Source of the DNA: Escherichia phage vB_EcoM_G8 | Length of the DNA: 64,000 bases | Direction: 5' to 3' (one strand) | Sequence record: NC_054915.1 | The notes under the pieces: model-generated | The model's input: the letters and a program-made list of their open reading frames with translations, nothing else | Database searches by the model: none | Told to the model about the DNA's origin: nothing | Part shown: positions 2,057 to 49,616 of the stretch, piece after piece | Position numbering within the stretch: the first letter of the stretch is position 1 | Layout: each line of letters begins with the position of its first letter | Program-made: the position numbers and the translations under genes

Positions 2057-2609
2057 ATTTTTCTAATAATAAATCGCTTTCAAAATTAGGATTTTCCACG
2101 AATTTATCAAAAAGATCATCAACGATAGTTAAGATATTCTTTTTATTAAGAATACGCTTATTTTCATATTTTGTTTCAGAGTCAACTATAAGAGTAAAGA
2201 AATATTTCTTTCCCTGAAATTTTACCGTAGTATCAATATAGAACAAATTTGACTTTTGTAAATTACGTTTAAACCATGCGTCACTTAAACTGTAAACGCC
2301 AAGATAATCATAATCGTCATTTAAATAACAAACTGTCCATTCAGGAGAAATGAAATCAGTAAATTCAACATCAAAATCACACGTCAATGAATGAATTGAT
2401 TCAATACTTTTAATGAGTATTCCAGGACGTATTAAAGACTTTTTACCTTTATAAAATCCAGAAAGACTTTCATCAGTTTCGTATGAAGACCCCCAATAGT
2501 AATTACGTCCTTCTGCCATACGTTTAAGAGCATTTAGTAATTGATCTGGAACATCAACCTGTCTTTGGAACTCTTCAAACATTGAATTGAAATCACTTTG
2601 CATTTTCAT
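2004..2609 (-). CDS. hypothetical protein (e.5-like position)
   Basis: 201 aa ORF in the conserved e.x series. Confidence 0.6.
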   Translation of the reverse strand: MKMQSDFNSMFEEFQRQVDVPDQLLNALKRMAEGRNYYWGSSYETDESLSGFYKGKKSLIRPGILIKSIESIHSLTCDFDVEFTDFISPEWTVCYLNDDYDYLGVYSLSDAWFKRNLQKSNLFYIDTTVKFQGKKYFFTLIVDSETKYENKRILNKKNILTIVDDLFDKFVENPNFESDLLLEKFVKECREYVKAITIPSK

Positions 2610-2650
2610 TCCTATTTACTCCAAGTAATAGGGGCCGAAGCCCCTTATCA

Positions 2651-3244
2651 TTATTTCAGAGAATTAATATATTCCTGGACATCGGCAGAGGTAGTTTCAA
2701 CCCCAGAAATATTGCCGTTAAAAGTTTCAACTCGAGCAAGGGTATCTTCAATATCAACCTTAGTCAGTGCTGCAATTTCAACTACATCATCGGCAGTACT
2801 AATTCCAAGGGCATTTGCCGCACGAGTTTCACGAATATATTCCAATTTAACTGCAAGTTCTTGGCGAGCATCATCTAACTCAACTACTTTCTTGGCGATT
2901 TCAATTCGCATTTCAGCATAACCGTCAGCTTTAGTAGTCAACTGCTCAGCTGTTCGGCGATATAGTAAACCGAGTTTAGCATGCATTGTTACATCTTGAC
3001 CTTCGGAAAGAAGTTTTCGAATTTCACGCTCTTTTGATTCGGCCTGTCGATTCTTTTCGATAACAAGTTCACGAATACGTTTTTCTTCATTAATAGATTT
3101 AATAGAAGCAGTTTTTAGATCTTTAATTTTATCAAGTAGTTTTGCTGCTGCAGCAGTATACTGTTCTTCAACAGATAGATTTTTAGCCATAGCAGAACCA
3201 AGTTTAGTGCGAATAAACTCAACAATTTTCTTCAGTGTGTTCAT
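2651..3244 (-). CDS. PspA/IM30-like coiled-coil protein (e.6-like position)
   Basis: 197 aa, heptad-rich; segment [10 protein letters not shown] resembles the PspA DDTLARMKKE region; family call from memory only. Confidence 0.5.
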
Positions 3245-3301
3245 AGTATTTCCTTAGATTGATACAATTAGATAATATCACGTTTTTAATAGATTGTAAA
3301 C

Positions 3302-3637
3302 TTATTCTTCGTCTATCTCATCGATAAAGACGTCAATGGCCTCGATAACGGCATCATTGATAGCCAATAAAGTAAAATCATCGTCAGTACCTTTATAAGA
3401 TTCTGAAGCATTGATATATGCTTGATTGACGAGTTCCCAAGCCTTTTTAAAATAAGGAGTTTCATCATCAGGACAAATATCCCGCACACCTTCAAAGATA
3501 CGATTGGCATAATCTAACACCCATTGTACAGGCATGTTTTGAGAACGTTCGTTAAACTCTTTAAATTCCTTAGATTCAAAAAGCTCTTCAGGATAATAAT
3601 TTCGATTACAAAAAGCTTTACTAAAGTTACGTTTCAT
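3302..3637 (-). CDS. hypothetical acidic protein (e.7-like position)
   Basis: 111 aa ORF. Confidence 0.6.
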   Translation of the reverse strand: MKRNFSKAFCNRNYYPEELFESKEFKEFNERSQNMPVQWVLDYANRIFEGVRDICPDDETPYFKKAWELVNQAYINASESYKGTDDDFTLLAINDAVIEAIDVFIDEIDEE

Positions 3638-44392: not shown

Positions 44393-45529
44393 TTATGGAT
44401 AGGTATAGATGATACCAGTTTCTAAAGCAGTTTTATGAATGATGTATCCATTACGCGATTCTTGGACATCAACTTCTGGATAATCTTTCATCATCTTCTG
44501 GAGAGTGTAACGATGCAAGTAGTACTTACTATCTGGATCGTCAGTTTTCCAATCTTTACCTTCTTCAGTCATTTTTTGGATTTCATCCATAACCCACCAA
44601 CCGCACCAGATATAAGCTGAAGTACGATGTGGAAGAGGATGAACATAAGGTAATTCACCTTCTGGTTCTGGAGCAACTTTATCAGTTACCTGAACTTGAC
44701 CTGTTGCTGTAATAGTTTTGCTATCATAATCAGCAGCAGTAACAGTTGCAGTAACTTCAATAGTTTGACTTCCAATAGATGAGGTATCAACGGTATATAC
44801 ATTAGTTGACCCTTCTACAGGAGAAGAATCTTTCTTCCATGAATAAGCAATTTGTGCTTCTTCTGGTGCGCCAGTAACATTAGCAGTAAATGTAGCCGAA
44901 GCATCTTGTTGAACGTTAATAGAAGGAGGAGTCAATGTAACCTGTGGATTCATTGTCTTCTTATTAACCGTTAATGATACTTCATTAGAAGTAACTTCTT
45001 TTGCATCATAATCTGTCGCGGTTACTTGAGCTACACACTTGATTTTTTTAACTCCACTTATAGTTGGAGTATAGCTAAATGTAGAGTTAGTTTCTCCACC
45101 AACTTGTGAATCATCTACATACCACTGATACGTAGCAGACGCTCCAACGGGTTGAGAAGCTAAGGCAGCAGTAAATTCAACAGCTGTTCCGATTACGCCA
45201 GCATCAGGGCTACCAGGAGTTACGGCTAAAGTAGTTGTTTGTGTCTTATTTTGAACTGTGATAGTTGTAGTAGCTTCTGCTGTTTCAGCTTCAGCTTCAG
45301 CTTCTGGAACTGTATTTGTTGCAACTACTTTAATAGTCTTTTGACCGGCAGGTCCTTTTAATACATAATTAAAAGTTGCTGACGTTTCTTCCTGTTGAAC
45401 ATTATCTACGCTCCAAGCATAGGTAATAGTTCCACCTCCAGTTTCACCACTGGGTGTAGCAGTAAACTGCTGAGTCTGATCTATAACTCCAGTAGGTGTT
45501 TTAGGAGTTATATCAACTGTAAAAGTCAT
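44393..45529 (-). CDS. hoc: highly immunogenic outer capsid protein Hoc
   Basis: 378 aa; repeated Thr/Val-rich Ig-like segments; position before inh. Confidence 0.88.
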   Translation of the reverse strand: MTFTVDITPKTPTGVIDQTQQFTATPSGETGGGTITYAWSVDNVQQEETSATFNYVLKGPAGQKTIKVVATNTVPEAEAEAETAEATTTITVQNKTQTTTLAVTPGSPDAGVIGTAVEFTAALASQPVGASATYQWYVDDSQVGGETNSTFSYTPTISGVKKIKCVAQVTATDYDAKEVTSNEVSLTVNKKTMNPQVTLTPPSINVQQDASATFTANVTGAPEEAQIAYSWKKDSSPVEGSTNVYTVDTSSIGSQTIEVTATVTAADYDSKTITATGQVQVTDKVAPEPEGELPYVHPLPHRTSAYIWCGWWVMDEIQKMTEEGKDWKTDDPDSKYYLHRYTLQKMMKDYPEVDVQESRNGYIIHKTALETGIIYTYP

Positions 45530-45538
45530 AAGTTATCC

Positions 45539-46219
45539 TTATTTTAATGTTACGAAAGAAGAGTTGCGTGTTTCACGAATTAAAACTGATCCATCACGAT
45601 TAATGTAATAAATTAAGCTAAATAAAGTTTGGTGTGCTGACGCATGCTCAAAACTAGTTGGGTGAGATTTCCAATCCGGAGTTTCAGCTATCCATTGATA
45701 AATCCACCAAGGAACAGTGCAGAATCCTGGATTTTTTCCAATCAGCTGAAGATTCGGACTAAAGTTTTCCGGAAGAGTAAATACAGACGGCTTTTCAGAT
45801 TCAATAATCTCAGCTACAGCCTGTTCAAATTTTTCTTCAACAAAAGGAGTATCTTCAATCAAAACTGAGGTATTTTCAGGAATTTTATCCGTTTCTACTA
45901 CTTCAATTTTAATGTCAGATTTAACCGGAGAATCAATCAGAAGTGCTGCTTCTGGATTGACTTCTTCATCGTCATATTTTAATCCCTCTGCGGCATCAGC
46001 AGCATCAATTAAGTCTTTAATAGATAACCCATCAGTCTCTGGCATAGGTTCACTAGCGAGCTTCTGGAGGGCTTCTTCAATATCATTAACGATATTATCA
46101 AAAGATTTATTCTTTTTGACCTTTATACCAAACTGTTCAGCATATTCAGCTAATTTAGCTTTAGCTTCTTTGTTATCATCAAGAGCCTTCAGCTCTGCAA
46201 TATAATCTTTATCTATCAT
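45539..46219 (-). CDS. inh: inhibitor of prohead protease Inh
   Basis: 226 aa; position between hoc and uvsW. Confidence 0.8.
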   Translation of the reverse strand: MIDKDYIAELKALDDNKEAKAKLAEYAEQFGIKVKKNKSFDNIVNDIEEALQKLASEPMPETDGLSIKDLIDAADAAEGLKYDDEEVNPEAALLIDSPVKSDIKIEVVETDKIPENTSVLIEDTPFVEEKFEQAVAEIIESEKPSVFTLPENFSPNLQLIGKNPGFCTVPWWIYQWIAETPDWKSHPTSFEHASAHQTLFSLIYYINRDGSVLIRETRNSSFVTLK

Positions 46220-46232
46220 AATATTTCCTCAG

Positions 46233-46240
46233 TATAAATA
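46233..46240 (+). promoter_or_regulatory. late promoter TATAAATA upstream of uvsW
   Basis: Exact TATAAATA about 30 nt upstream of the uvsW ATG. Confidence 0.5.
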
Positions 46241-46269
46241 TAGATATATTTATTACATGGTATTTAGAC

Positions 46270-47781
46270 ATGACTGACATTAAAGTACATTTTTATGATT
46301 TTAGTCACGTGAGAATTGATTGTGAAGAAAGTACATTTCATGAACTCCGTGATTTCTTTAGCTTTGAAGCTGATGGGTATCGTTTTAATCCGAAGTACAG
46401 ATATGGCCACTGGGATGGACGAATCCGTCTTTTAGATTATAATCGACTTCTTCCATTCGGCTTAGTCGGGCAAATTAAAAAGTTCTGTGATAACTTTGGC
46501 TATAAAGCCTGGATTGACCCACAAATTAACGAAAAAGAAGAATTATCAAGAAAAGATTTTGATGAATGGCTTTCTAAATTAGAAATCTATTCAGGAAATA
46601 AAAGAATTGAACCACATTGGTATCAAAAAGATGCAGTGTTCGAAGGATTAGTTAATCGTCGTAGAATTCTTAATCTTCCAACATCCGCTGGTAAATCGTT
46701 AATTCAAGCTTTGCTTGCGCGATATTATTTGGAAAATTATGAAGGTAAAATTCTTATCATTGTTCCAACAACTGCTCTGACAACTCAGATGGCTGATGAC
46801 TTCGTCGACTATCGTTTATTCAGCCATGCAATGATAAAGAAAATTGGTGGCGGAGCATCAAAAGATGATAAATATAAAAATGATGCACCAGTCGTTGTTG
46901 GTACATGGCAAACTGTAGTAAAACAACCGAAAGAATGGTTCTCACAGTTTGGAATGATGATGAATGATGAATGCCATCTTGCTACAGGAAAAAGTATTTC
47001 ATCTATCATATCAGGTTTAAATAACTGCATGTTCAAATTCGGTTTGTCTGGTTCATTACGTGATGGCAAAGCCAATATCATGCAGTATGTTGGAATGTTT
47101 GGTGAAATATTTAAGCCAGTAACGACTTCTAAGTTAATGGAAGATGGACAAGTAACTGAGCTAAAAATTAATAGTATTTTTCTTCGCTATCCCGATGAGT
47201 TCACTACTAAATTAAAGGGAAAAACTTATCAAGAAGAAATAAAAATTATTACTGGGCTTAGTAAAAGAAATAAATGGATCGCTAAATTAGCTATTAAGCT
47301 TGCACAAAAAGATGAAAACGCTTTTGTCATGTTTAAACATGTATCGCATGGTAAAGCTATTTTCGATTTAATTAAAAATGAATACGATAAAGTTTATTAC
47401 GTATCAGGGGAAGTTGATACCGAAACCCGCAACGTAATGAAAACTTTAGCTGAAAACGGTAAAGGAATAATTATAGTAGCGAGTTATGGTGTATTTTCTA
47501 CTGGTATTTCAGTTAAAAATCTGCATCACGTTGTTTTAGCGCATGGTGTTAAATCAAAAATCATTGTATTACAAACAATCGGTCGTGTATTACGTAAGCA
47601 TGGTTCTAAGACAATAGCAACGGTCTGGGACCTCATAGATGACGCGGGCGTAGTTTCTAAATCAAAAACATCTTCTAAAAAATACTCGCATTTAAACTAT
47701 CTTTTAAAACATGGACTTGATCGTATTCAGCGTTATGCTGATGAAAAGTTTAATTATGTGATGAAAGAGGTTAAACTTTGA
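46270..47781 (+). CDS. uvsW: ATP-dependent DNA helicase UvsW (SF2)
   Basis: 503 aa; Walker A PTSAGKS; DECH box MMMNDECHLA. Confidence 0.92.
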   Translation: MTDIKVHFYDFSHVRIDCEESTFHELRDFFSFEADGYRFNPKYRYGHWDGRIRLLDYNRLLPFGLVGQIKKFCDNFGYKAWIDPQINEKEELSRKDFDEWLSKLEIYSGNKRIEPHWYQKDAVFEGLVNRRRILNLPTSAGKSLIQALLARYYLENYEGKILIIVPTTALTTQMADDFVDYRLFSHAMIKKIGGGASKDDKYKNDAPVVVGTWQTVVKQPKEWFSQFGMMMNDECHLATGKSISSIISGLNNCMFKFGLSGSLRDGKANIMQYVGMFGEIFKPVTTSKLMEDGQVTELKINSIFLRYPDEFTTKLKGKTYQEEIKIITGLSKRNKWIAKLAIKLAQKDENAFVMFKHVSHGKAIFDLIKNEYDKVYYVSGEVDTETRNVMKTLAENGKGIIIVASYGVFSTGISVKNLHHVVLAHGVKSKIIVLQTIGRVLRKHGSKTIATVWDLIDDAGVVSKSKTSSKKYSHLNYLLKHGLDRIQRYADEKFNYVMKEVKL

Positions 47782-48470
47782 ATTATAAATTAATATATGA
47801 TAATTTAATTAATAGAGCCCAGAATCGGGCTCGCCTTAATGGATACACTGAAACACATCATATAATTCCTAGATGTATGGGTGGTACAAATGATAAGTGT
47901 AATTTAGTAGAACTAACGGCTGAAGAACATTTTATAGCCCATAAACTTTTAGCTAAAATTCATCCAAACCATTACGGTATAATTAAAGCTGTTATATGTA
48001 TGGGGATGAATTCAAATACTCATGAAAGACACGTCAATAAATCTTACGCATGGGAACGTCGTAAAATGGCAGAACTTCAATCCGGCGAAGGTAATCCATT
48101 TTACGGAAAACACCATACGGAAGAACATAAACAATATATGTCAAAACTCATGAAAAGTCGTCCAATTACATGGGGAAATAAAATTAGTAAAACTAAAAGA
48201 ATGAACCCAACGAAATGGACTGAAGAAGCTAAAAGATTACATTCAATCAATCAATCGGGTAAAAATAACGGCATGTATGGAAGGAAACATTCCGCTAAAT
48301 CTATTCAGAAAATTAAAGATAACATGCCAGATAATTCAGGAGCTAATAACCCAGCTGCTAAACCTATAGAAGTAAATGGTGTTAAGTATAAATGTATGAA
48401 AGATGCTTCTAAAGCTACTGGATTATCAATGTACAAACTAAGAATACTTAGAAAAACAGTCAATTTATAA
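47778..48470 (+). CDS. HNH homing endonuclease with NUMOD repeats, TTG start
   Basis: 230 aa; HNH core ETHHIIPRCMGGTNDKCNLVELTAEEHFIAH; two NUMOD3-like repeats (GEGNPFYGKHHTEEHK, GKNNGMYGRKHSAKS); AAAGAGG RBS 8 nt before a TTG that overlaps the uvsW stop. Confidence 0.8.
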   Translation: MNYKLIYDNLINRAQNRARLNGYTETHHIIPRCMGGTNDKCNLVELTAEEHFIAHKLLAKIHPNHYGIIKAVICMGMNSNTHERHVNKSYAWERRKMAELQSGEGNPFYGKHHTEEHKQYMSKLMKSRPITWGNKISKTKRMNPTKWTEEAKRLHSINQSGKNNGMYGRKHSAKSIQKIKDNMPDNSGANNPAAKPIEVNGVKYKCMKDASKATGLSMYKLRILRKTVNL

Positions 48471-48495
48471 GGGCTTCGGCCCTTTGGAGAAAAAG

Positions 48496-48726
48496 ATGTT
48501 ACTAAAATTTAAACAATTTCTTTATGAAGCTTCTATTGATGAATTTATGGGTAAAATTGCCTCTTGTCAAACATTAGAAGGTTTAGAAGAACTTGAAGCT
48601 TATTACAAGAAAAGAGTCAAAGAAACTGAATTAAAAGATACTGATGACATCTCTGTGAGAGATGCTTTGGCAGGAAAAAGAGCTGAATTAGAAGATTCAG
48701 ACGATGAAGTAGAAGAAAGCTTTTAA
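48496..48726 (+). CDS. uvsW.1: UvsW.1
   Basis: 76 aa from Met MLLKFKQFLYEAS; acidic C-terminus; the ORF track extends 4 codons upstream. Confidence 0.75.
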   Translation: MLLKFKQFLYEASIDEFMGKIASCQTLEGLEELEAYYKKRVKETELKDTDDISVRDALAGKRAELEDSDDEVEESF

Positions 48727-48782
48727 ATTAAAAAAAGGCCCAACCAAAAAGGAAGGGCCAAAACTATAGACTAAAGGTCACA

Positions 48783-48950
48783 CTATAGCAAAAGTTGTGT
48801 TTCATTTAATTGTTCTTCCGAACTTTCTGAAACTGGTAGTTCTTTAATGTAATTATAGCAAGGCCCAGGATGTACAGGACCTTTGTCTGTTTCAACAACC
48901 AATGCAGAATCGATTGGAGTTTTACAGACAACACAAATCTTATCTGACAT
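48783..48950 (-). CDS. small zinc-ribbon-like protein (uvsY.-2-like position)
   Basis: 55 aa hand-translated (MSDKICVVCKTPIDS...CYNYIKE...), below the 60-aa ORF-track cutoff; GAGGAGA RBS. Confidence 0.55.
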   Translation of the reverse strand: MSDKICVVCKTPIDSALVVETDKGPVHPGPCYNYIKELPVSESSEEQLNETQLLL

Positions 48951-48978
48951 GATTGTCTCCTCTGAATTATATATCTAT

Positions 48979-49203
48979 TTATACAACTCTCATATGCATA
49001 TCAATGCCCATATCTTTAGAATAAAAATATTCATCAAGATATCCGGCAAATTTTCCTTTAATATAAAGGACATCTTCACCACACGGGTGGTCGGCCAGGA
49101 TACGAATATCCTGACGCTTAAGATTATGCTTTTTCATTAAGAATTGAATTTCCGTTTCAAATTCTTCTTCATAATTAAAAGCATCATCAATGCTATATTT
49201 CAT
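48979..49203 (-). CDS. hypothetical protein (uvsY.-1-like position)
   Basis: 74 aa; stop overlaps the uvsY region. Confidence 0.65.
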   Translation of the reverse strand: MKYSIDDAFNYEEEFETEIQFLMKKHNLKRQDIRILADHPCGEDVLYIKGKFAGYLDEYFYSKDMGIDMHMRVV

Positions 49204-49616
49204 TATTTTCCAGCCTCAAATGCTCGCATGTCTTGAATATGCTTAATAGCAAATCCACGTGATTTAATAGCATCAAGAGCTCCGCTACAGAAATCTAATA
49301 AAATTCCCCAATATTGTAATGAAGTATCAACCTTTAAAACATCCTTATCAGCTGATAAAACTGTCTTCATTTCTGATTTCTCGTAACGATCCATACTAAA
49401 TTCATCACCATCTCCTCGTCCCGAGTAGTAGTCTAATCTAGCTTTAAGAGCAACTTTTTTCTGTGCGTCAATTCTAAGCATTTCCTTTTTAATACTTGAA
49501 TGCTTATTAAGCCATTTACTATATAACATCACATTATTAGCTGCTTCATACTGTAATTTAGTCGAATCTATAAACACATCTTTCTTCAATTCTTCTTGAA
49601 GATCTTCTAATCTCAT
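49203..49616 (-). CDS. uvsY: recombination mediator protein UvsY
   Basis: 137 aa; size and position before gene 25. Confidence 0.88.
   Translation of the reverse strand: MRLEDLQEELKKDVFIDSTKLQYEAANNVMLYSKWLNKHSSIKKEMLRIDAQKKVALKARLDYYSGRGDGDEFSMDRYEKSEMKTVLSADKDVLKVDTSLQYWGILLDFCSGALDAIKSRGFAIKHIQDMRAFEAGK

Follow-up and report, generated by a model that had tools for sequence, protein, structure and literature searches.

In T4 and related phages the helicase gene uvsW is normally adjacent to uvsW.1. In Escherichia phage vB_EcoM_G8 an additional open reading frame (ORF) occupies the junction of the two genes, which raises the question of what this gene is, how it entered the end of a core gene, and whether it is mobile. 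We analysed a 64,000-nucleotide stretch of the phage (sequence record NC_054915.1; the window), in which the ORF lies at 47778–48470 on the + strand. The window belongs to a T6-like Tequatrovirus and has 98.9% identity to T6 across 47000–49200. The reading that we favour, with a probability of about 0.7, is that the ORF encodes an active or recently active free-standing Mob-type (MobE-like HNH) homing endonuclease, with its home site at the 3′ end of uvsW, at the uvsW/uvsW.1 junction.

The ORF list gives 230 codons (230 aa) for this gene. Its TTG start codon (47778–47780) overlaps the uvsW stop codon TGA (47779–47781) within cTTTGAa, and a Shine-Dalgarno (SD) sequence, AAAGAGG (47764–47770), lies 7 nt 5′ of the TTG. 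An earlier start is excluded because an in-frame TAA (47772–47774) stands two codons 5′ of the TTG, and the next in-frame ATG is codon 34; starting there would delete the first catalytic histidine. Orthologs start at the identical position and always within an NTGA overlap; four lineages use TTG, four ATG and two GTG, and the sequence NY(K/Q)KIYD following the start codon is conserved. The 230 codons, the TTG overlapping the uvsW stop and the AAAGAGG had been given in a preliminary description of the locus, and they are borne out by the ORF list and the sequence. The same description held that non-AUG starts are typical of phage homing endonucleases; this fails, as among the free-standing endonucleases of T4 only mobA uses GUG (PMC2988022). 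The ORF is separate from uvsW, with its own start and in a different frame. A +1 frameshift of the prfB kind, with GAGG as the SD-like element and CUU UGA as the site, was considered and rejected. The +1 frame reads GAA TTA TAA and closes two codons later, and the endonuclease occupies the remaining frame; a UvsW–endonuclease fusion is thus impossible. No group I or group II intron was found in an Rfam scan of 45500–49500.

To what family does the product belong? NUMOD3 (Pfam PF07460) was matched in two stretches at E 7.6e-14, with 51.8 bits against a cut-off of 20.4 bits, and PHROG 655 (phrog_655, 'homing endonuclease') at E 3.9e-60. T4 MobE is 42% identical over residues 1–181 (BLASTP, E 8e-34). 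The predicted HNH (beta-beta-alpha-metal) nuclease core, residues 20–61 (47835–47960, +), contains the motif HHIIPRCMGG-x5-N-x8-H-x3-H. In an alignment of 28 homologs H28, C33, G35, G36, N42, H51 and H55 are invariant, and the conserved HNH catalytic residues H27/H28, N42, H51 and H55 are invariant or nearly so. An AlphaFold2 model has a mean predicted local distance difference test score (pLDDT) of 84, and of more than 93 for the N-terminal 77 residues; strands 25–28 and 43–46 are followed by a helix at 48–61, which is a beta-beta-alpha arrangement. The first NUMOD3 motif occupies residues 94–122 (48057–48143, +). A second NUMOD3-like motif and a putative I-TevI-type C-terminal DNA-binding module follow at residues 157–216 (48246–48425, +). 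The best match in the Protein Data Bank (PDB) is the I-TevI DNA-binding domain, 1i3j, found by phmmer over residues 157–216 (E 0.006) and as the top Foldseek match (probability 1.0, TM 0.47 on target); the Pfam family I-TevI_DNA-bd (PF20987) scores 14.7 bits, below its 27-bit cut-off.

The possibility of a Seg-type GIY-YIG enzyme, or a 'group I intron endonuclease', was ruled out. Pfam searching found no GIY-YIG domain in the protein, and TIGR01453 ('group I intron endonuclease') matches residues 97–216 only, with 30 bits against a 56-bit cut-off. The GenBank label 'group I intron endonuclease' is therefore misleading, since GIY-YIG is absent and TIGR01453 covers the DNA-binding region alone. 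Judged by homology, the gene product is a predicted free-standing Mob-type HNH endonuclease with a NUMOD3/I-TevI-type DNA-binding tail, in agreement with the HNH/NUMOD homing endonuclease first proposed.

The gene is sporadically distributed. The last 378 bp of uvsW match 496 phage records, 47 of them at 95–99%; a further 444 match at 80–90%, their alignment ceasing 11 nt before the uvsW stop, and five records besides LH2 fall in the 90–95% class. Endonuclease DNA is carried at 95% identity or more by 47 records, and 47 cover at least 80% of a 2.2-kb query spanning the gene. Carriers thus make up about 47 of 496, or approximately 9.5%, of Tequatrovirus records, and relatives without the ORF include T4 itself. 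Orthologs form a tight group of 13 clusters (224–233 aa, 54–100% identity, E ≤6e-68 in a protein search), set apart by a large gap from paralogs at E 1e-35 or weaker. Every ortholog that could be placed in a genome stands between uvsW and uvsW.1 with its start overlapping the uvsW stop. The ten T4-like lineages concerned are Tequatrovirus (the window, T6, PST, ZN18 and others), Klebsiella phage Roth77, Gaprivervirus (UPEC01 and MT446411), a Dhakavirus-like phage (PSD2002), Bragavirus (PM2), a Morganella phage (Rgz1) and four metagenomic contigs. The ratio dN/dS between orthologs is 0.05–0.38, the lowest value being that of the window against ZN18, within Tequatrovirus. These values indicate that the orthologs are a site-specific lineage under purifying selection.

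Empty sites were found in T4, LH2, Roth51, JS98, MX01 and Pm5461 and in 31 metagenomic or viral contigs, as the preliminary description had anticipated for relatives lacking the insert. A scan of IMG/VR and metagenomes with a degenerate junction pattern recovered 32 loci, just one of which contained the gene. In the empty-site phages uvsW and uvsW.1 are indeed adjacent, and they have been described as two ORFs (PMC1524935). Sporadic presence, empty sites and Mob homology all support the view of the gene as a mobile endonuclease.

Comparison with empty sites defines the insertion. In LH2 and T4-type metagenomic contigs the empty site reads ...GTAATGAAA-ACAGTTAATTTATAA-GGGCTTCGGCCCTTTGGAGAAAAAGATG, and the junction is ...ATGAAA^ACAGTTAATTTATAAGGGCTTCGGCCC..., where ^ marks the insertion point, 15 nt (five codons) inside uvsW. 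Homology of the window to the empty site stops at 47766 (ATGAAA) and restarts at 48456 (ACAGTCAATTTATAAGGGC...). Alignment to LH2, T4 and metagenomic empty sites thus gives an insert of 689 bp (47767–48455, +) relative to T4/LH2-type phages. The gene had been placed exactly between uvsW and uvsW.1; this is correct as to the junction, but relative to the empty site the insert lies within the uvsW coding sequence.

The insert opens with a surrogate uvsW tail, GAGGTTAAACTTTGA (E-V-K-L-stop), containing the SD sequence and TTG start of the endonuclease. The whole substitute tail, AAAGAGGTTAAACTTTGA (K-E-V-K-L-stop; 47764–47781, +), is insert-borne from 47767 and holds both AAAGAGG and the TTG. Because the insert begins in this way, UvsW stays 503 aa long, the same as in phages without the insert. 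At the other end, the displaced resident uvsW tail, ACAGTCAATTTATAA (T-V-N-L-stop; 48456–48470, +), is identical at 14 of 15 nt to the uvsW end of T4/LH2, and the sequence beyond it is identical to T4/LH2. The endonuclease ORF has no stop codon of its own; it runs into the displaced T-V-N-L-stop and ends at the original uvsW stop. Hence in the window uvsW ends in KEVKL-stop and the endonuclease in KTVNL-stop, the latter being the resident uvsW tail of empty-site phages.

Comparable junctions were found in other genera. In the Dhakavirus-like phage PSD2002 uvsW ends in MKEVQI-stop and the endonuclease in MKQVDL-stop; MKQVDL-stop is the resident tail in the non-carriers JS98 and MX01. By this comparison the hybrid tail arrangement of PSD2002 is an independent, Dhakavirus event. 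In Gaprivervirus UPEC01 a perfect 17-nt direct repeat, ATTAAACAGGTGGAAAT, lies on both sides of the gene; its upstream copy serves the endonuclease (SD AGGTGG and TTG) and its downstream copy uvsW.1. An 18-nt repeat with one mismatch, AAAGAGGTTAAATT(G/A)TGA, flanks the gene in Bragavirus PM2 and has the same double role. In the Bragavirus non-carrier Pm5461 the native uvsW tail, REVKL-stop (AGAGAGGTTAAATTATGA), overlaps the uvsW.1 ATG. The substitute tail of the window is identical to this native Bragavirus tail at 15 of 18 nt, which suggests that the cassette derived from a lineage with a (K/R)EVKL tail.

A hairpin with a UUCG tetraloop, GGGCUUCGGCCC (48471–48482, +; predicted fold −9.3 kcal/mol), is also present at empty sites. 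It lies directly 3′ of the uvsW stop in empty-site phages, and in the window it lies 3′ of the endonuclease gene, before the uvsW.1 SD sequence. The hairpin is conserved in Tequatrovirus and F2-like phages, and is absent where uvsW and uvsW.1 overlap by ATGA. T4-type contigs and LH2 have the two-ORF arrangement with the GGGCTTCGGCCC hairpin. In the RefSeq T4 record (NC_000866.4; 1874–3637 of the stretch used) uvsW and uvsW.1 are fused as a 587-aa uvsW, the record reading AATTTAATAAGCTTCGG instead of AATTTATAAGGGCTTCGG; this fusion is an old sequencing error.

Linkage of the gene to its flanks was examined in a table of the variable sites of eight carrier and seven non-carrier Tequatrovirus genomes, a population-level comparison and not a cross. 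Between the window or T6 and T4, uvsW is 96–100% identical except in two blocks, its first ~200 bp and its last ~200 bp; sliding identity in the latter (47576–47775) is 72–80%. Within this block all eight carriers share one common haplotype over 47641–47766 (+; ~125 bp, ~78% identical to T4), so that linkage to the endonuclease is complete, whereas the non-carriers have an alternative haplotype, LH2 being recombinant. Polymorphisms upstream of ~47630 are shuffled across carriers and non-carriers. Escherichia phage LH2 (OQ378934; 2740–2882 of the stretch used), a non-carrier, is carrier-type at 47641–47692 and T4-type at 47695–47766, and would have arisen by natural recombination or by loss of the gene. 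Two other carrier–non-carrier pairs behave similarly. Between Roth77 and Roth51 identity falls to 72–88% in ~150 bp upstream of the gene, against 100% downstream of it and ~98% elsewhere; PM2 and Pm5461 are 62–80% identical over ~200 bp upstream and 98–100% downstream. Across the three genus pairs, carriers and non-carriers thus share 62–88% identity in the 125–200 bp upstream and 98–100% in uvsW.1 downstream. A search for a donor of the divergent uvsW tract found no phage record outside the carrier set above 82%.

Because the enzyme must spare the carrier's own genome, and the flank downstream is unchanged, the recognition site is expected in the divergent 3′ end of uvsW or spanning the insertion point. 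The putative target is accordingly placed at one of these two positions. A candidate target stretch, AAATTTAAYTACGTAATGAAA, is conserved in 29 of 31 empty sites, save for a TAT variant in one lineage. A candidate signature, TACGTAATGAAA, with a 10-bp palindrome, ATTACGTAAT, is present in most of the 31, and carriers alter it to TATGTG, TATGTT or TATGTC. However, empty sites of F2/RB69-like phages likewise have TAT in the signature, and the numbers compared are small.

How might the gene be expressed? An exact match to the T4 late-promoter motif, TATAAATA (46233–46240, +), lies 30 nt upstream of uvsW in the inh–uvsW spacer, and is the likely source of a transcript carrying uvsW, the endonuclease gene and uvsW.1. 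No exact late-promoter motif was found between uvsW and uvsW.1. When a uvsW.1 promoter was sought within the endonuclease gene, only late-like motifs with one mismatch (TATAAATG at 48387) were seen, at about the background rate. A MotA-like TGCTTC at 48404 is likewise at about background, as were the matches in a sigma-70 promoter scan. From these scans the cassette therefore appears to lack a promoter, to share the uvsW transcript and to be coupled in translation to uvsW, as mobE is to its own upstream gene (PMC2790892; PMC2988022). Tight coupling to the upstream gene had been called typical of such endonucleases, and mobE, with UAAUGA, conforms.

A GC-rich hairpin, GAGCCC-AGAAUC-GGGCUC, is predicted at nt 38–55 of the ORF (47815–47832, +; −12 kcal/mol, z −2.8). 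Orthologs were compared by folding each sequence, scanning for the best 30-nt window and counting pairs outward from the loop. The most stable 30-nt window of the ORF lies at nt 24–57 in ten of ten lineages. The stem sequences differ and covary, with three to five canonical pair types at each of the six stem positions, and the peptide encoded across the hairpin is poorly conserved. RNAalifold on a MAFFT alignment of the 5′ regions returned no structure, the hairpins being 3–6 nt out of register. T4 mobE has a homologous hairpin at nt 33–54, shown experimentally to be a terminator for ~30% of transcripts (PMC2790892). The window hairpin is the counterpart of this internal intrinsic terminator, though its effect here is uncertain.

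We propose the following pathway. The promoterless cassette would ride on the uvsW late transcript starting near TATAAATA, and the TTG at the uvsW TGA would couple endonuclease synthesis to uvsW termination. Expression would be low owing to the weak start codon, and the hairpin 12 codons into the ORF would probably attenuate the transcript, as its homologue does in mobE. By homology, the protein would have an N-terminal HNH domain, two NUMOD3 motifs and an I-TevI-like helix-turn-helix, and would be an elongated monomer, recognising a long, asymmetric sequence at which it nicks or cuts. The linkage data suggest that in a mixed infection the uvsW 3′ end of the phage lacking the gene would be broken, and that T4-type recombination would copy the gene into it together with at least 125 bp of the donor uvsW end. 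The carrier would be protected by the insertion, by the divergent upstream tract, or by both, these being its sole differences from non-carriers. Harm to the host phage would be minimal: as compared with empty sites, the cassette replaces the last four codons of uvsW and leaves both UvsW length and the uvsW.1 start context unchanged.

Several observations count against this proposal. Pfam HNH (PF01844) scores 16.2 bits (E 0.012) on the protein, below the 21.4-bit cut-off, which T4 MobE clears at 24.6 bits; of the HNH and NUMOD profile matches that had been expected, only NUMOD3 is thus above threshold. Whole-model fold searches gave weak HNH matches only. Not every lineage shows the tail swap: a tail copy is missing from five of the ten and is reduced to a partial NL-stop in Roth77. 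In these lineages the endonuclease ends in ...KLRKLL(K)-stop, at the uvsW.1 start or close to it, and in most of them the two overlap. LH2 has part of the linked tract without the endonuclease gene. The candidate specificity positions (GTA in non-carriers, GTG, GTT or GTC in carriers) are statistically weak and not decisive. The haplotype could instead be a hitch-hiking remnant of one ancient introgression, with a ~50% divergent core blocking crossovers. Finally, termination at the window hairpin is doubtful, as its stem is only 6 bp long and a U-tract is absent.

The strongest competitor, though itself unlikely, is that the endonuclease is inactive or decaying, a remnant fixed in a T6-like sublineage and spread vertically or by ordinary recombination after homing was lost. 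Homing endonucleases commonly degenerate once fixed, and I-TevIII of T4 is defunct (PMC2790892); moreover the 47 Tequatrovirus copies are all at least 95% identical with one flanking haplotype, as a single introduction could give. However, the ORF is intact, its HNH residues are conserved in every lineage, and the low dN/dS values, down to 0.05 between the window and ZN18, speak against decay. Outside the tract the carrier genomes are mosaic and unlike one another; the cassette has therefore passed from one background to another, and ten lineages have the gene at the same site with host-specific junctions.

An active endonuclease with its target elsewhere (in uvsW.1, further downstream or at a distant locus), with the uvsW 3′ haplotype merely hitch-hiking, is improbable. 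MobE nicks a gene downstream of its own insertion, nrdB (PMC2790892), and free-standing endonucleases can cut hundreds of bp from their own genes (PMC2988022). In three genera, though, the downstream flank is 99–100% identical between carriers and non-carriers, so that a carrier would be cut too, and consistent differences occur only upstream and at the junction.

Rather improbable also is a more far-reaching idea, that an ancestral Mob-lineage insertion created the uvsW/uvsW.1 split itself. The split is found throughout T4-like phages and has been unexplained since 2004; on this idea the homing endonuclease gene was mostly lost and the ATGA overlap is its scar. Were it true, the junction duplication of tail, SD sequence and start codon would be the mechanism that made the split viable. 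Fused uvsW and uvsW.1 proteins were sought, and none was found in a search that reaches fairly close relatives only: all 75 UvsW.1 clusters are stand-alone proteins of 52–96 aa, and the idea is therefore not supported by the sequences. Very improbable, finally, is that the protein is no homing element but has been domesticated for DNA binding or regulation, modulating uvsW/uvsW.1 expression or taking part in phage competition: this would fit the strong modular DNA-binding region (two NUMOD3 motifs and a predicted helix-turn-helix), the operon shared with a recombination helicase and the fact that I-TevI acts also as a repressor, but a sporadic distribution, in ~9.5% of records, speaks against a function that the phage needs, the catalytic residues show strict conservation, and UvsW and UvsW.1 function without the endonuclease in T4.

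If the homing endonuclease reading is right, the tail swap illustrates a way for a selfish gene to settle at the end of a core gene without harm: the surrogate end doubles as ribosome-binding site and start, and the host tail and stop are reused. The swap also accounts for the different uvsW ends of T6-type and T4-type phages. T-even phages serve as the model for free-standing homing endonucleases, and experimental characterisation exists for only a few Mob enzymes (MobA, MobE). With the present gene a separate Mob sublineage is defined; it has one home site only, the last ~140 bp of uvsW, which is easy to assay. Natural carrier, non-carrier and recombinant alleles (T6, T4 and LH2) make target mapping and marker-exclusion experiments with T6 against T4 or T2 feasible. 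The tail swap or junction duplication, the flanking linkage and the 5′ hairpin are unsurprising for T-even phages, and their interest is modest.

The gene is already annotated in public genomes and is not new to databases. T6 (AP018814) labels the same ORF 'homing endonuclease', Yersinia phage PST labels it 'mobD' with the note 'MobE', and other records have 'group I intron endonuclease' or 'hypothetical protein'. Literature searching in full text found no paper describing the endonuclease; the Edgell review gives segE alone at the uvsW locus in T4 (PMC2988022), and the UFV-AREG1 genome paper names both flanking coding sequences 'UvsW helicase' and ignores the one between them. From its sequence the gene belongs to the Mob family as a new member, as yet uncharacterised by experiment, and its putative home site is defined. 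In UPEC01 (MW233709) the endonuclease (2501–3196 of the stretch used) is annotated from an internal ATG at 2597, losing 32 codons that include the HNH histidines; this is a misannotation, because the real start is TTG. Several public annotations are thus wrong or shortened owing to the TTG start. The T6 record (AP018814) also mislabels segE as 'tail tape measure protein' and uvsY as 'ribonucleotide reductase large subunit'.

As to the neighbouring genes, uvsW (46270–47781, +) is recognised by Pfam UvsW_N (5e-43), ResIII, DEAD and Helicase_C. The 76-aa uvsW.1 (48496–48726, +; UvsW-1, PF11637, 1.7e-30) is 99% identical to that of T4; its ATG at 48496 follows GGAG at 48486–48489, and the start agrees with the PST annotation. 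A GC-rich inverted repeat, GGCCCAACCAAAAAGGAAGGGCC (48729–48765), lies between the converging uvsW.1 and uvsY.-2, and corresponds to the conserved bidirectional terminator of Nolan et al. 2006 (PMC1524935); a simple terminator scan did not report it. Other insertions were seen near the locus. In Proteus phage PM2 (MF001355) uvsW is annotated as two 'DNA helicase' pieces around a 291-aa ORF (745–1620 of a 2503-nt stretch) with Cys-rich motifs and a weak, sub-threshold match to a TnsA-like endonuclease N-terminal domain (E 2.6e-4); this ORF may be a second mobile nuclease splitting uvsW. A metagenomic Dhakavirus-like contig has, at 2897–3595 (−), a 232-aa ORF with a faint NUMOD3 match between a DUF2685 gene (uvsY.-2) and uvsY, which may be another endonuclease. 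Phages G2540-3 (about 2050–2174 of the stretch), HY03 and F26 have ~97 extra bp between uvsY.-2 and uvsY.-1.

At the opposite end of uvsW, inh (45539–46219, −) and uvsW (46270) are only 50 bp apart, with no segE between them. T4 carries segE at this position (PMC2988022, Table 1), as do T6 and PST, so the preliminary description was right both that the window has no seg-type gene there and that its endonuclease complement at the locus differs from that of T4, segE being in T4 only and the HNH gene in the window only. The contiguous inh–uvsW junction of the window is matched at 95% or more by 340 records, and ~148 match in two pieces around a segE insert; by these counts absence of segE is the majority state in Tequatrovirus and no peculiarity of this phage. 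The start of uvsW (46276–46475) is 76–90% identical between the window and the segE-bearing T4 and T6, mirroring the tract at the 3′ end. These first ~200 bp are probably a SegE target or co-conversion region, in keeping with the published SegE target in uvsW (PMC2988022, Table 1).

Among known systems the closest is T4 MobE. Besides the identity over residues 1–181, both proteins belong to PHROG 655 and have in common the N-terminus MNY.KIY.DLI and the motif HHIIPRCMGG...N...EHFIAH. Both genes are promoterless with a start overlapping the upstream stop, UAAUGA in mobE and UUUGA here (PMC2790892; PMC2988022), and both have a GC-rich hairpin ~30 nt into the ORF (PMC2790892). Sporadic distribution and co-inherited flanking polymorphisms are further points of likeness. 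However, mobE resides between nrdA and nrdB and starts with AUG, whereas the present gene resides at the uvsW 3′ end and starts with TTG; the MobE tail is zinc-finger-like (CPHC...C), whereas here it resembles the I-TevI helix-turn-helix; and the mobE hairpin is longer than the present one, which has no U-tract. The gene that MobE nicks is the downstream one, whereas here the linked divergent tract is in the upstream gene, and the tail-swap anatomy is undescribed for mobE. SegE of T4, also sporadic in Tequatrovirus, adjoins and targets uvsW (PMC2988022, Table 1), with a ~200-bp divergent block at the adjacent uvsW end; it differs in belonging to the GIY-YIG family, in lying at the opposite end of uvsW and in being absent from the window, and T6 and PST carry both elements. 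With I-TevI, an intron-encoded enzyme with a GIY-YIG catalytic domain, the likeness is confined to the DNA-binding module: residues 157–216 align to the minor-groove helix and helix-turn-helix of 1i3j, and the NUMOD3 motif family is shared. The Aeh1 mobE gene (in nrdA) and T4 mobA (gene 39/60) are, like the present gene, Mob-type genes inside a host coding region whose function is kept (PMC2988022). They differ in that here the last four codons of the host gene are displaced and replaced and there is no functional split, uvsW and uvsW.1 being already separate ORFs without the insert (PMC1524935).

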